A stretch of DNA of 64,000 bases. Source: a virus. This document shows, one piece after another, positions 59-7,477 of the stretch. The stretch spans positions 1 through 64,000 of the IMG/VR virus record IMGVR_UViG_3300048892_000198. The stretch is one strand, 5' to 3'. The stretch's first letter is position 1; every line of letters begins with the position of its first letter. The position numbers and the translations under genes were made by a program. The notes beneath the pieces were generated by a model, which worked only from the letters and a program-made list of their open reading frames with translations, did not search any database and had not been told where the DNA came from.

Positions 59-383
59 GTCTCGGTTTCCTTAGGGACCGAGCTCCCTTCGCACGCGTGC
101 GGCCCGTACCCCGACATGTTCACGTAAACGTCTCGGTTTCCTTAGGGACCGAGCTCCCTTCGCACAGATCGAGCGTTGGCGCATCGCCGCGCGCGACTTC
201 ACCGTCTCGGTTTCCTTAGGGACCGAGCTCCCTTCGCACCGATGGTGTGGCCCATCCCGGCACTGTCGCGCACGCGGTCTCGGTTTCCTTAGGGACCGAG
301 CTCCCTTCGCACTGCGTTGCCGGCCATCGCCCAAAACGAAACGGTTCGTCTCGGTTTCCTTAGGGACCGAGCTCCCTTCGCAC
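59..383 (-). CRISPR. Type V-M-like CRISPR mini-array with 5 identical 36-nt repeats and 4 spacers
   Basis: Repeat GTCTCGGTTTCCTTAGGGACCGAGCTCCCTTCGCAC (+) at 59-94, 130-165, 204-239, 277-312 and 348-383. Spacers 95-129 (35 nt), 166-203 (38), 240-276 (37) and 313-347 (35). On the - strand the repeat reads GTGCGAAGGGAGCTCGGTCCCTAAGGAAACCGAGAC, with a CTCGGT/ACCGAG stem and a 3' -GAC end as in Cas12m repeats. Orientation inferred from the co-oriented cas gene and the TTC PAM of the self-match. Confidence 0.97.
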
Positions 384-431
384 CAGTCTAGTTGTCACAG
401 AACGATCCCGCGTACTTACAGCGCGGTTTGC

Positions 432-451
432 GAGCGGTTCAGGAACCGCTC
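432..451. other. Hairpin directly after the cas12m stop codon, within the 68-bp gap before the array
   Basis: Perfect inverted repeat GAGCGGTTC-AG-GAACCGCTC; no U-tract follows. Confidence 0.55.
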
Positions 452-1996
452 TCATTCAGCCGCATCGAGCAACTGATTTTTCGAGTTATTTGCATCCTGA
501 TCCCAGGAGGCACCGCACCCCTCGCAGTCGTGCCGAAGCTCGCGGGCCTTATCCCACTTGCAGAGAGCTCCACAGGCATGACAAGTGAGCGTGCGCTTGG
601 CGGGTTTGAGCACTTCGCACGCTTCCCCGAACACGCTCAAGATCTCGGCTCGGAGATAGTGCGGACCGACGAGGAAGCGGTAGTGGCGCGCCGCCGGGAT
701 CTCGTCCTGTCGTTCGCCAGGAGGCGCCCGCATCACGACGCTCCTCATATCGAACGCCTCCACCACGCACGAGTCGTAGCGGGCAAAGAGCTGCCGCGCC
801 CAGAGCCGGTAGATCTCGCGCCTCGAGCGGAGCGCGCCCGAGTATTCATCTCGCTCCCATTGGTAGAGGTGCCGATCGCGACGCGCCCAGTGCTCGCGAT
901 CGGCTGGGTCTTGCTTCTGAGCCTGCTCAAGGGTGAGCCGCACGCGGCCGAGCTCTCGGTGCGTCGCCGACGGGTCAGCGAGGGCCTCTCTTCGAGCTCG
1001 GGTGCGGCCGCGCGCGTCGCCTAGGTGAGCCGTGGCCATTCCATCGGCGAGCGAGCGCAGGGACTCGGCGTGCTTCTGTCGACCGATGAGCGAGTCGGGG
1101 ATGACGAGGCTCGTCTCGACCCCCTGATCGTCCACGGCGTAGGCCACCCGCACGCCGCCCTCGACGCGGCGCCAGCCAAAGTTGATGGCGCATTTGCCGA
1201 TGCCGGTTTTCGGTCGAGTCGCCGCCGCCGTGTCGAGCGTCAAGTGCACGGAGTAGACCCAGCGATCGCCGATGCGGTCGATGATGAGCCGCGCAAAGAT
1301 GATCCGCACCGGGTAGGGGACACCATCCTTGATTCCCAGCTCAGGGAGCGGGCGGTGATAGACGATGGGCACCTCAAGCGACAGCCCATCACGAAGTCGG
1401 AGCGTGATGACGCGGTGACCACAAGGCTTAGTCGGAAAGCGCGGCGTCTTCGCTCGGAGATCTCGCGCGCGGCAATCAGCGCATCGAAACTCTTCGGGGC
1501 CGATCTGCACGGGCCCCTTCAGAGATCGAAGCGCTGCATTCACCGTGAGCTTGGTTGCTCCCTGCACAGTCGCTGCCAGCATGCCCTCACCATCGTAGCG
1601 ACGGAAGCGCGGGCGAGCGCAAGCCATCACGCGCTTGACCCAGGGCCACTGCTTGCGTGCCGCACGGGCGCGGGCCTTGGACTCGTCACTGCGGCGTGTC
1701 TTCATGGCAGCGGCGACCATCTCGGTCACGGCTTGCTTTTGGCCCCAGCCAATCGAGGTCGCCGCGCCGACAGCGCGGCAGGCGGCGTTGTAGGCCAGCC
1801 GATGCTCGGTCTTCTGCGCATCGTCGAGCGGCGCCATCTGGAGATCTTCGGTGAGGTCGCGCGCGGCGATGCGCCAGCGCTCGATCTCAACGAGAGCGTT
1901 GTAGTAGAGGTTCGAGAGGCGCTGCTCGGCGAGCAAGTCCTCGAAGGTGCCGCCGATGACGCGGGGTTTGAGGGCGCCGTATTTGTAGACGAGCAT
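452..1996 (-). CDS. cas12m: Compact Cas12m-like (type V-M / V-U1) effector, 514 aa, predicted nuclease-inactive
   Basis: Adjacent to the array. Motifs shared with Cas12m: YKYGAL, YNALVEIER, RFRRYDGEG, VPIVYHRPLP, RuvC-I CAINFGWRR (catalytic D replaced by N), RuvC-II VVEAFD, C-terminal CHACG...CEGCG zinc finger and WDQDANN. Confidence 0.88.
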   Translation of the reverse strand: MLVYKYGALKPRVIGGTFEDLLAEQRLSNLYYNALVEIERWRIAARDLTEDLQMAPLDDAQKTEHRLAYNAACRAVGAATSIGWGQKQAVTEMVAAAMKTRRSDESKARARAARKQWPWVKRVMACARPRFRRYDGEGMLAATVQGATKLTVNAALRSLKGPVQIGPEEFRCADCRARDLRAKTPRFPTKPCGHRVITLRLRDGLSLEVPIVYHRPLPELGIKDGVPYPVRIIFARLIIDRIGDRWVYSVHLTLDTAAATRPKTGIGKCAINFGWRRVEGGVRVAYAVDDQGVETSLVIPDSLIGRQKHAESLRSLADGMATAHLGDARGRTRARREALADPSATHRELGRVRLTLEQAQKQDPADREHWARRDRHLYQWERDEYSGALRSRREIYRLWARQLFARYDSCVVEAFDMRSVVMRAPPGERQDEIPAARHYRFLVGPHYLRAEILSVFGEACEVLKPAKRTLTCHACGALCKWDKARELRHDCEGCGASWDQDANNSKNQLLDAAE

Positions 1997-2032: not shown

Positions 2033-2821
2033 TCACGCATCCGGGATCGCTCGCACGTACGATTCGTTGCCCGAGGTGCCCACGAAGAGCGCGAGGCAGA
2101 GCATCTCTTCGCCGGCAGGCACGGTCCAGTCGTGCACGCAGTACGCGCGGCGCTCGGTCAGATCGTAGAGGCTCCGGTAGCTCCGGTGTGCGAGCGCATC
2201 GGGGGCGTTGCGAGAGGTGATGATGTACGTATGCCCCGTGTCGGCGCCGAGCTGCAGGAAGGCCTGCTCGCTCTGGAAGTCGAAGATCTGCTCCGGCGTG
2301 AGAAACGCTCTCAGCACAGCGTTGGCGCGGATCTCGGCAGCCTCGAAATCGGGCGCCGGGCAGCCCTGAGTCGGTTGCGCCACCGTGACGGCGGCAGCAG
2401 GCGTTTTGGCAGACTCTTCTTCTTCCGGCGCGGCCATGTCCATGAGCCCGATCGTCTTGTCGGTGATCTGCTCGATGACGCCGTTCTTGTAGCGCACGAC
2501 AGACAGACAGTCGCGCCCAGGCTTCATCGGCTTCTCGAGTGCCTTCTGCACCTTGGAGATCGGCGCCTCGAGCACGATGGACTGCTCATTAGTGGCATCG
2601 AGATCGATCTTTTCGAGTGCGGATGCGCTAGCCCACGGCGATTTGGTGATCCCCGTTCTCTTGGCCTCCGCCATCAGCGATCGCACCGCCACCTTCTCGG
2701 TGGAGGACAGGCCGACGAGGATGAGCCGGGTCTCCCCATTGCTCACCCGTTCCAGGCGGATGTCCCCGTAGAAGCTCGGGAGGTACCAGGTCAACGGTGG
2801 TGGGCGGTGGATGGTCGTCAT
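2033..2821 (-). CDS. Hypothetical protein, 262 aa, directly upstream of cas12m
   Basis: Internal ATG (MTTIHRPP) preceded by AAGGA; plausible composition; ends 36 bp before cas12m. Confidence 0.7.
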   Translation of the reverse strand: MTTIHRPPPLTWYLPSFYGDIRLERVSNGETRLILVGLSSTEKVAVRSLMAEAKRTGITKSPWASASALEKIDLDATNEQSIVLEAPISKVQKALEKPMKPGRDCLSVVRYKNGVIEQITDKTIGLMDMAAPEEEESAKTPAAAVTVAQPTQGCPAPDFEAAEIRANAVLRAFLTPEQIFDFQSEQAFLQLGADTGHTYIITSRNAPDALAHRSYRSLYDLTERRAYCVHDWTVPAGEEMLCLALFVGTSGNESYVRAIPDA

Positions 2822-3479
2822 GGGGATTTCCTTTTGCAATTCGGTCGACGAGTCCGTCGATCTGTTTCTGCAGCACCGCAAGGTGCGGGCTATCGGGCGC
2901 CTGCGCCTTGAGCAGAGCGACGGCGTGGAGGGCTTGGTTGAGCTCGTCATAGAGCTCAAGCCGGGTCGGCGGCAGAGCCGCCTTGAGCTCCCGAGTCTTC
3001 TTCTGCTCGTTGAAGAAACCCTGGAGCATCATCATCAGATCGCGCTGCATCTGCACCTGATCGGGAACGCCGCCAGGGCCAATGGGCACCCCGAACTGAC
3101 CACCAATGTACGCGGGATGCCTAGGCATCACAGCATCGCCGCGAAGGATGTCGCGATCCTCCTGCTCTTCGGCGTAGCCATTGATGTCGCCCATACCCTG
3201 AGCGATGTACTGACCTTCGGCGCCCAAAAGTCCCTGCATGGCGGCCGCTTGATGATCTTGGGCACGGATCTTCTTGGCCTCAGCGACCGTCTTGACGAGT
3301 TCGGCACTGATCTTCTGGCCCATCACGCACAAACGCGCGGCGCGACCGAAGCGATCGATCGAGGTCGTACCGAGGAGCGCACCAACGGCCTCCGACATGG
3401 AGTCGAGCACGGCGCCGAGCTTCGCGTCGGGGGTAGCCGCGGGCGACGGAAGATCGGGGCTCGGGATCGTCTCAGTCAT
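2628..3479 (-). CDS. Hypothetical helical protein
   Basis: 283-aa ORF; its 3' end overlaps the next gene by 194 bp. Confidence 0.6.
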   Translation of the reverse strand: MTETIPSPDLPSPAATPDAKLGAVLDSMSEAVGALLGTTSIDRFGRAARLCVMGQKISAELVKTVAEAKKIRAQDHQAAAMQGLLGAEGQYIAQGMGDINGYAEEQEDRDILRGDAVMPRHPAYIGGQFGVPIGPGGVPDQVQMQRDLMMMLQGFFNEQKKTRELKAALPPTRLELYDELNQALHAVALLKAQAPDSPHLAVLQKQIDGLVDRIAKGNPHDDHPPPTTVDLVPPELLRGHPPGTGEQWGDPAHPRRPVLHREGGGAIADGGGQENGDHQIAVG

Positions 3480-3669
3480 GGCTGGCCACCCGCGCTAGGC
3501 GCCCGACCTGATGATCGATCTTGAGTTGAGCAGCGATGTCCCAGTAGCCCACGTACACGAGCTCTGAATGCGTGCGGCGCGGATCGGTACGGTAAGCGCG
3601 CTCGATGGTTTCTCGCCATTCGGGAGACTTCCACTCGAGCCTCTGAGCGATTCGGTCGCGGTAGCTCAC
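3472..3669 (-). CDS. Small hypothetical protein
   Basis: GTG start (VSYRDRIAQ); stop overlaps the next start. Confidence 0.5.
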   Translation of the reverse strand: MSYRDRIAQRLEWKSPEWRETIERAYRTDPRRTHSELVYVGYWDIAAQLKIDHQVGRLARVASHD

Positions 3670-3937
3670 GTCGCCAGTCTCCTGATCTGACCCACGATGA
3701 TCTCCGTGTAGGTCCACTTCCTCCGATCTTTTTGCACGAGCCTCTCTCGGGCGGCCTTCAGGTGTTTGAAGTCCTCGGTCGGCATGCGTACCGTCAGCAC
3801 ATGATGGCCTGCCTTCAGCGATTGCTTTTTCTGCTGCTGCATATCCGCTTTGATTCCTTGGAGGATCGCGCCACTAGGCTAGCGCGTGACATCTCGGAAC
3901 TATCACGCCACTATCTCGATGGCAAGCCCAGGTTTCT

Positions 3938-7074: not shown

Positions 7075-7310
7075 CCGTGCGTGCGGTGCAGATACCCAGG
7101 ATCCGCACAGCCTGTGGAGTGCAGCGTGAGACGTATCGCTGCTGCCTCGACATCACTCGCGTGGTCGAGTCTTGGGATCCTCGCGCCAATATCTGGCGTC
7201 CCGAGATCCGACTCTGTCACCTGCACGCGATCGAGTACGTGACCGGGGAGCCAGTCTTCTTGCCGACGTTCGCGCAGCAGGAACTCACGATGCGAAGGCT
7301 CGGCGCGTGA
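7071..7310 (+). CDS. Small hypothetical protein
   Basis: ATGA/GTGA coupling. Confidence 0.5.
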   Translation: MTVRAVQIPRIRTACGVQRETYRCCLDITRVVESWDPRANIWRPEIRLCHLHAIEYVTGEPVFLPTFAQQELTMRRLGA

Positions 7311-7477
7311 AGCCCTGCGACAATTGCAGCGAGCCCTCCAAGCGCCGGTACCGGTGCGCGAGCTGCTCTGCACTCAACTGCTACCTGTGCACTGACCACT
7401 CTTGGAAAGGCGCCTGCTATTGCGTCACCGTCAAGCAATGTGAAGCGCGCCGACGTGAGCGAACCACCCGCGCGTGA
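7307..7477 (+). CDS. Small Cys-rich zinc-finger protein
   Basis: GTGA coupling; CDNC, CASC, CYLC, CYC. Confidence 0.5.
   Translation: MKPCDNCSEPSKRRYRCASCSALNCYLCTDHSWKGACYCVTVKQCEARRRERTTRA

Follow-up and report, generated by a model that had tools for sequence, protein, structure and literature searches.

Type V-M CRISPR systems are known from characterised Cas12m proteins such as MmCas12m2, GoCas12m, PmCas12m and the protein of PDB entry 23vw. TTN or YTN protospacer-adjacent motifs (PAMs) have been measured for the Mm, Go and Pm proteins (PMC10442227, PMC11013384, bioRxiv 10.64898/2026.03.26.714355), and C-rich PAMs are used by other Cas12m orthologues (PMC11013384). The heteroduplex that Cas12m reads is 17-18 bp long (PMC10442227, PMC11013384), and a two-stem pseudoknot has been described for the CRISPR RNAs (crRNAs) of these systems (PMC10442227; bioRxiv 10.64898/2026.03.26.714355). 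Here, we analyzed a 64,000-nucleotide (nt) stretch of virus DNA (the window), which is the first 64 kb of the single 110,728-bp contig of a soil virus (IMG/VR virus record IMGVR_UViG_3300048892_000198, hereafter G000; linear, about 82% complete according to CheckV). It carries a CRISPR array in which one spacer matches the cas12m gene beside it. The system resembles type V-M in its compact homologous effector with a non-canonical RuvC triad, its 36-nt repeat, which places a pseudoknot scaffold on the 5' side of the guide, its lack of adaptation genes and the T-rich flank at the self-like site. It differs in being virus-borne, in the smaller size of its protein (514 versus 577-614 amino acids) and in that the activity of its effector is predicted.

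Self-targeting spacers, virus arrays directed against kin and guide-based autoregulation of cas genes are all already known. Al-Shayeb and colleagues reportedly described arrays of huge phages in 2020, and Stern and colleagues are said to have found in 2010 that self-targeting spacers are tolerated or neutralised by mutation of the PAM or the seed. The arrays of inter-viral conflict (Medvedeva et al. 2019) share with G000 an array on a virus without cas1/cas2, a spacer resembling a gene of the carrier and mismatches that would spare self. In G000, by contrast, the virus itself carries the effector, which is predicted only to bind DNA, the effector gene is the one matched, and the exact kin genome is absent from our IMG/VR scans. 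Tolerated self-targeting spacers (Wimmer and Beisel 2020, PMC6990116) share with G000 an imperfect self match; in G000 it was plausibly captured beside the array, at a hot spot (PMC5737086), and plausibly neutralised by a seed difference. What sets G000 apart from them is a putatively binding-only effector, which would make self matches non-lethal, and a match to the effector gene, which would be self-limiting.

CreR/CreA and the long trans-activating crRNA (tracrRNA) of Cas9 also contain a guide complementary to their own cas locus, with degenerate repeats, short guides, an intact seed and a cas promoter as the target. In known regulatory CRISPR-like RNAs, the seed is intact, distal complementarity has been lost and the target is a promoter (bioRxiv 10.1101/2023.03.10.532045). 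The G000 guide, by contrast, is a full-length canonical spacer with a broken seed (mismatch at position 6) and a near-perfect distal part; its target lies 110-147 nt inside a coding region, and it is not conserved. New here is an instance in which a canonical spacer is directed at the coding region of the effector itself, in a V-M system that is carried by a virus and predicted to be binding-only.

A spacer matching the effector gene of its own virus

The following features of the window carry the match.

59..383, minus strand: CRISPR array with five identical 36-nt repeats; in crRNA sense, GTGCGAAGGGAGCTCGGTCCCTAAGGAAACCGAGAC and then the spacer (repeat finding, covarying pseudoknot)
166..203, minus strand: self-like spacer, 38 nt, third from the leader (36/38 to 1850-1887)
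452..1996, minus strand: cas12m-family effector gene, 514 amino acids (phmmer to PDB 23vw_A, weak Pfam TNB match, residues invariant in homologues)
1847..1849, plus strand: TTC flank at the PAM position (read from the sequence; fits the TTN/YTN PAMs of orthologues)
1850..1887, plus strand: protospacer (non-target strand) in cas12m, nt 110-147 of the open reading frame (ORF) (match to spacer 166-203)

The reverse complement of the spacer at 166-203 is identical to the plus strand at 1850-1887 at 36 of 38 positions, and identity continues for one more base, the last base of the repeat agreeing with PAM position -1 (37/39). A blastn-short search of this spacer against the whole 110,728-bp contig returned the site with E = 2.7e-12, and a chance origin was rejected at this value (about 3e-12); the other G000 spacers had no match on the contig in the same search. 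The matched part of the ORF encodes EIERWRIAARDLT. At guide position 6 the gene has CTC (Leu48) and the spacer TTC (Phe), and at position 28 the gene has CGC and the spacer CGT, which is synonymous. The original prediction, made from the sequence before any database search, had described this match, its place some 110-150 nt into cas12m, the TTC flank at 1847-1849 and both mismatches; all of these held, and the match to 23vw_A places the gene in the Cas12m family. The guide is antisense to the cas12m messenger RNA (mRNA) and would pair with the coding strand. A separate 21-nt partial match, of 19-39 to 1840-1860, was set aside as chance, its shared 10-mer recurring at many places of the contig.

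The effector assignment comes from a phmmer search of ORF 452-1996 against PDB chains, in which 23vw_A ("Cas12m") matched residues 125-509 with E = 1.6e-37 and UnCas12m4a followed at E = 1e-6; Pfam gave a weak Cas12f1-like TNB match (PF07282) on the 514-amino-acid protein. The motifs AINFGWR, VVEAF and WDQDAN align with AIDLGWR, VLEEF and WDQDYN of 23vw_A, so that the RuvC-I Asp is replaced by Asn while the Glu and the last Asp are retained. The protein thus has a single C-terminal RuvC-like domain with a TNB zinc-finger insertion and an altered triad, N272-E413-D499/D501, with zinc-finger cysteines C472, C475, C491 and C494. N272, E413, D499, D501 and the four cysteines are invariant in 34 homologues. 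The triads of assayed Cas12m proteins are D-E-D, H-D-D and N-D-D, and N-E-D is not among them. From the missing RuvC-I Asp and the behaviour of orthologues (PMC11013384), the G000 Cas12m is predicted to bind DNA without cutting it.

The strand of the array was established from its surroundings and its repeats (59-94, 130-165, 204-239, 277-312 and 348-383). In all relatives for which DNA was compared (L027, L028, L029, L034, L036, L037 and L084), the array lies 3' of cas12m on the same strand. The repeat, about 36 nt long, has a predicted pseudoknot scaffold 5' of the guide, with a 3-bp stem I (-29..-27/-18..-16) and a 6-bp stem II (-24..-19/-8..-3), mirroring the PmCas12m scaffold (bioRxiv 10.64898/2026.03.26.714355). 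Across 24 repeat variants of the family, 97.7% of cells were paired, with compensatory changes in five of the nine scaffold pairs, including a pseudoknot pair (CG 14, GC 9); none of 500 shuffles reached these values, and slid registers were 28-45% paired. Several of the G-U pairs would turn into A-C if the plus strand were read, which identifies the minus strand as the RNA strand. Leader synteny, covariation and the G-U pairs together ruled out plus-strand transcription and agree with the minus-strand reading first proposed. With minus-strand transcription, the crRNA consists of repeat and then spacer and the guide is antisense to cas12m mRNA; since the array is transcribed together with cas12m, the guide has the orientation initially given for it.

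Predicted binding to the resident gene

We assumed TTN as the PAM of the G000 Cas12m. The self-like sites are the sole protospacer-like sites at hand, and their flanks are TTC in G000, CTC in L080 (a metagenome locus described below) and CGT in G001 (a related virus genome). Cas12m reads 17-18 bp, and the mismatch at position 28 is therefore irrelevant. The guide would pair with the coding strand, and RNA polymerase would reach the complex at its PAM-distal end. PAM-distal approach of RNA polymerase is a weak orientation for catalytically dead Cas12a (dCas12a), and by analogy it would disfavour repression by the G000 Cas12m.

Position 6 lies within the seed. For MmCas12m, a high intolerance of mismatches is reported over the first 11 nt (bioRxiv 10.64898/2026.10.26.761838), and PmCas12m, for which the optimal guide is 17 nt, loses its activity through a single mismatch anywhere within 12 nt of the PAM (bioRxiv 10.64898/2026.03.26.714355). 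By these rules, the position-6 mismatch probably leaves the resident cas12m unbound by the 166-203 crRNA, and the spacer is probably inert on its carrier.

Self-like spacers in other Cas12m loci

To place this spacer among other systems, the spacers of 61 non-redundant Cas12m-like loci with arrays were compared with their own cas12m coding sequences. G000 and L080 scored 61.9 and 58 bits, respectively, against a noise ceiling of about 36 bits, and 57 additional array-bearing IMG/VR loci yielded no own-cas12m spacer. L080 is an 11.6-kb metagenome contig with a different repeat and a 586-amino-acid D-E-D effector whose identity to the G000 protein is only about 30%. The L080 spacer in question lies at 2832-2867 and agrees with nt 133-169 of the cas12m of this locus at 35 of 37 positions, next to a CTC flank; the mismatches, at guide positions 4 and 13, are both synonymous, and the guide is antisense to the mRNA. 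In the protein alignment, the G000 and L080 target sites are adjacent. L080 is thus a second, unrelated Cas12m locus with a spacer against its own cas12m, newly found here. An exact-pattern scan of IMG/VR with the L080 spacer found nothing. Apparent self matches in L088, L151, L176 and parts of L080 proved to be solitary repeat copies rather than spacers, and those in L026, L154, L164 and L173 were dropped for want of a clear repeat context.

Searches of whole virus records with Cas12m arrays gave the following self-like matches.

G000: one match, 36/38, 1.65 kb from the array, flank TTC
G001: one match, 30/35, 7.3 kb from the array, flank CGT
G002 (L008): two matches, head to head, perfect, 2.6 kb from the array, flanks TGC and AGG
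G003: no match (whole-record search)
G004 (L024): one candidate match, 35/37 (a 1-nt indel falls near position 7), 44 kb from the array, flank TTC

Self-like spacers are not rare across these records. In G002, a 47-kb virus, the spacers at L008:7152-7192 and 7302-7338 match abutting sites in L008:4088-4160; both sites fall within an ORF, about 850 bp upstream of the G002 cas12m, and neither has a YTN flank. The YTC-flanked self sites (G000, L080 and the candidate in G004) all have seeds disrupted at positions 4-7, whereas the perfect self matches of G002 lack a YTN flank. The numbers are small, and the pattern of flanked sites with broken seeds and unflanked perfect sites looks like selection against self-binding.

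The differences between spacer and gene in G000 and L080 are synonymous in three of four cases, an outcome that we estimate at about 5% likely if the spacers had decayed, which argues that the divergence arose on the side of the coding sequence. The original prediction took the codon-preserving mismatches to favour a rival's allele as the source; the gene-side divergence stands, and a rival source does not follow from it.

The protospacer is immediately preceded by a C at three of four self-like sites (window 1847-1849/204; L080:741; L008:4119), and C is also the base with which the repeat ends. In the type I-E system of Escherichia coli, the last PAM base is captured together with the spacer. 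The C before the protospacer looks as if the last PAM base had been captured in a similar way.

The self matches also tend to lie near their arrays, at the distances listed above in genomes of 110, 135, 47 and 200 kb, for which a combined estimate of clustering over four genomes gave p of about 0.03, on small numbers. CRISPR arrays act as hot spots for protospacers in Pyrococcus furiosus, since the leader-proximal repeat is nicked when a spacer integrates (PMC5737086). The leader-side neighbour of the array in the Cas12m loci compared here is cas12m.

Search for an exact allele among relatives

About 30 close homologues of the G000 Cas12m, with 57-82% identity, are present in public data, and several of their genes sit on contigs of 126-136 kb. 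One of them, the L029 locus, belongs to G001, a virus genome of 135,429 bp that is complete, carries direct terminal repeats and is 72%-related to G000. The original prediction proposed looking for a perfect match in another cas12m, and this search came back empty: exact-pattern scans of IMG/VR found nothing, either with the spacer carrying either base at the two variable positions or with TTC plus the first 20 nt, and Phe at residue 48 occurred in none of about 30 homologous proteins, which have Ile, Leu or Val there. No relative comes as close to the spacer as the resident gene does (36/38). L029 matched the spacer at 27/28 over part of its length, the best match in a related virus, and at about 33/38 over the whole (counted from the sequence), and L027 gave a partial match of 27/29.

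None of the spacers of L027 (12 spacers), L028 (5), L029/G001 (about 27), L034 (5) or L036 (26) matches a cas12m, and the arrangement is not conserved as a regulatory unit among these related loci. Conserved autoregulation was therefore rejected: with the five related arrays and about 100 Cas12m-like loci covered, own-cas12m spacers are confined to G000 and L080. We found no cross-targeting between members of the Cas12m family. The other G000 spacers match neither the G000 contig nor the complete genome G001, and there is thus no sign of systematic kin targeting.

Origin of the spacer and alternative explanations

We favour, with moderate confidence, an origin of the spacer by capture from the 5' part of a cas12m allele within the virus's own lineage; the resident allele would be exempt from its effect. 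The source DNA would be the cas12m of a co-infecting, near-identical kin virus or that of the virus itself. We lean slightly towards a sibling, holding a kin-derived spacer as the tentative choice and a self-derived one with later drift or escape as slightly less probable. No Cas1 or Cas2 is encoded across the G000 contig, so that capture must use proteins supplied in trans; it would have taken DNA from beside the array, a known spacer-capture hot spot. The spacer would then have been kept because Cas12m binds DNA without cutting. Its crRNA would be made from the minus strand, with the first 17-18 bases as the part read by Cas12m, and would meet the resident gene beside a usable TTC with an rA:dC mismatch at position 6. 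As this mismatch would prevent stable binding under the Mm and Pm rules, the resident gene is most likely unrepressed and a functional feedback loop absent. If the guide has any activity, its target would be a kin genome with the exact sequence, amounting to kin exclusion. With a sibling as the source, a simple filter would retain only spacers for which self differs in the seed; with the virus itself as the source, capture would be followed by drift or escape.

Several observations weigh against capture from the own lineage. The nearest solved Cas12m shares about 31% identity with the G000 protein, whose PAM and mismatch tolerance are both taken from orthologues. Neither the IMG/VR exact-pattern scans nor the residue at position 48 of about 30 homologues revealed a kin allele with the exact sequence. 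In addition, at two unrelated loci a spacer matches almost one and the same stretch of the cas12m beside it, with the guide oriented alike, a coincidence whose chance we estimate at a few percent (post hoc, n=2); it could reflect selection of the site, which passive capture does not predict.

Such selection is the core of a different explanation, in which the spacer is kept as a weapon to silence the cas12m of competing relatives and the mismatch in the virus's own seed confers immunity. Both cas12m-directed cases combine a usable flank with a seed mismatch (TTC and position 6 in G000, CTC and position 4 in L080), the differences are biased to synonymous sites, and the targeted stretch is highly conserved among relatives, as in the 27/28 match with L029. 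Virus-borne arrays target related viruses, according to the account of Medvedeva et al. 2019 given in bioRxiv 10.1101/2023.03.03.530964, and no new mutation would be needed, since a simple filter suffices that lets kin spacers persist solely where the seed of self is different. What speaks against such a weapon is the missing allele and the missing Phe48 homologue, the lack of any relative's spacer matching a cas12m, and the fact that it does not explain why the effector gene should be a better target than essential genes; we consider it unlikely, though worth keeping in view. The original prediction's preferred model, a spacer from a rival's allele with escape of self, accordingly fits the seed mismatch and the flank and lacks its allele in IMG/VR, and a self-derived spacer with drift or escape gives the same picture. 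It is similarly doubtful, if conceivable, that virus Cas12m systems recurrently hold, as a selected trait, spacers directed at the initial ~170 nt of the gene for their own effector, with a usable YTC flank and a broken seed. The two lineages are only ~30% identical, and this may be kin discrimination that shuts down the effector of a co-infecting sibling with the matching allele, the seed difference being the mark of self, or weak, tunable feedback. We accordingly give any selected function for cas12m-directed spacers a rather low probability.

The other model first proposed, attenuated negative feedback, has the mismatched guide bind its own gene weakly and so set the effector level. Cas autoregulation by CRISPR-like RNAs is established (bioRxiv 10.1101/2023.03.10.532045; 10.1101/2020.05.21.102756), MmCas12m represses 23-fold from a site in a coding sequence (bioRxiv 10.64898/2026.10.26.761838), and a target near the 5' end of the gene recurs in L080. 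Known regulatory guides, however, retain the seed and lose the distal part, the reverse of the broken seed seen here, and the intolerance of Mm and PmCas12m to seed mismatches, the absence of the feature from the arrays of all close relatives (L027, L028, L029, L034 and L036), the PAM-distal arrival of the polymerase, weak by analogy with dCas12a, and the lack of a YTN flank at perfect self matches when flanked ones have broken seeds all point the same way, making feedback improbable. Control could instead act at the RNA level, the spacer transcript pairing with cas12m mRNA and lowering its stability or translation with no need for DNA binding. Both guides, in G000 and L080, are antisense to cas12m mRNA, a 36/38 RNA duplex would tolerate two mismatches, and the array comes immediately downstream, on the strand of cas12m and without a called terminator. 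The shared orientation of two cases has a 50% chance, however, both G000 mismatches are A:C rather than wobble pairs, and spacers bound by Cas12m are poorly available for RNA pairing. We know of no Cas12m precedent for such antisense control and regard it as very improbable.

With binding-only effectors, self-targeting is no longer lethal, and virus Cas12m arrays can therefore keep a record of self and kin DNA where a cutting system would purge it. No CRISPR feedback or anti-CRISPR-by-CRISPR circuit could be simpler than a guide directed at the gene of the effector itself. Comparing binding at the native and the perfect site would reveal how phages tell self from sibling by one base, and the locus offers natural data on the seed stringency of Cas12m, which matters for its use as a compact repressor.

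Other features of the array and the virus record

The remaining parts of the array and its leader are as follows.

95..129, minus strand: spacer 4, no match found (searched against the G000 contig and G001)
240..276, minus strand: spacer 2, no match found (same searches)
313..347, minus strand: spacer 1, leader-proximal, no match found (same searches)
384..451, minus strand: conserved leader, from the cas12m stop to the first repeat (CCGCTCGCAA ... GTAAGT ... GCGGAAT) (alignment of relatives)

The leader is 68 nt long and has 32 invariant columns across seven relatives, down to 43% protein identity, and its CCGCTCGCAA motif is kept even in loci at 28-43% protein identity. It contains a small hairpin with a GTAAGT loop and a co-varying stem, and could be a promoter or an RNA element; neither a sigma-70 consensus promoter nor an intrinsic terminator was called in 384-451.

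A second array lies at the opposite end of the contig in the opposite orientation, outside the window (L001:15303-15693, contig 110302-110692). Its six or seven repeat variants all differ, with the hairpin preserved by compensatory changes, its spacers are short (16-35 nt), and no effector gene stands beside it. The contig matches of these short spacers are of seed length and at chance level, and a role for them as regulators of G000 was rejected.

One to three solitary repeat units lie directly upstream of cas12m in other loci (L029:4821-5000, L028:4855-5000, L080:276-571 and L012:4440-4541), the last ending 28-45 nt before the start codon; G000 and L027 have none there. In L080, a promoter-like box, TTGACG-17-TACTAT, precedes each solitary repeat. 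In such loci, the cas12m mRNA leader would contain a CRISPR repeat, a possible binding site for the gene's own protein.

A megablast search of the window against cultured-phage records gave no match, and PHROGs and Pfam searches of the genes neighbouring cas12m gave nothing informative. A 2026 preprint claims the first report of a phage-encoded Cas12m (10.64898/2026.09.14.751636). On IMG/VR virus contigs, however, a Cas12m-like gene accompanied by an array is common (two scans gave 23 and 71 loci, L004-L026 and L117-L187), so that this claim fails at the level of sequence databases. The two genes directly upstream of cas12m (window 2033-3479), which are without a Pfam or PHROG match, are present in G001/L029 and missing in L027, where cas12m directly follows a homologue of 3472-3717.

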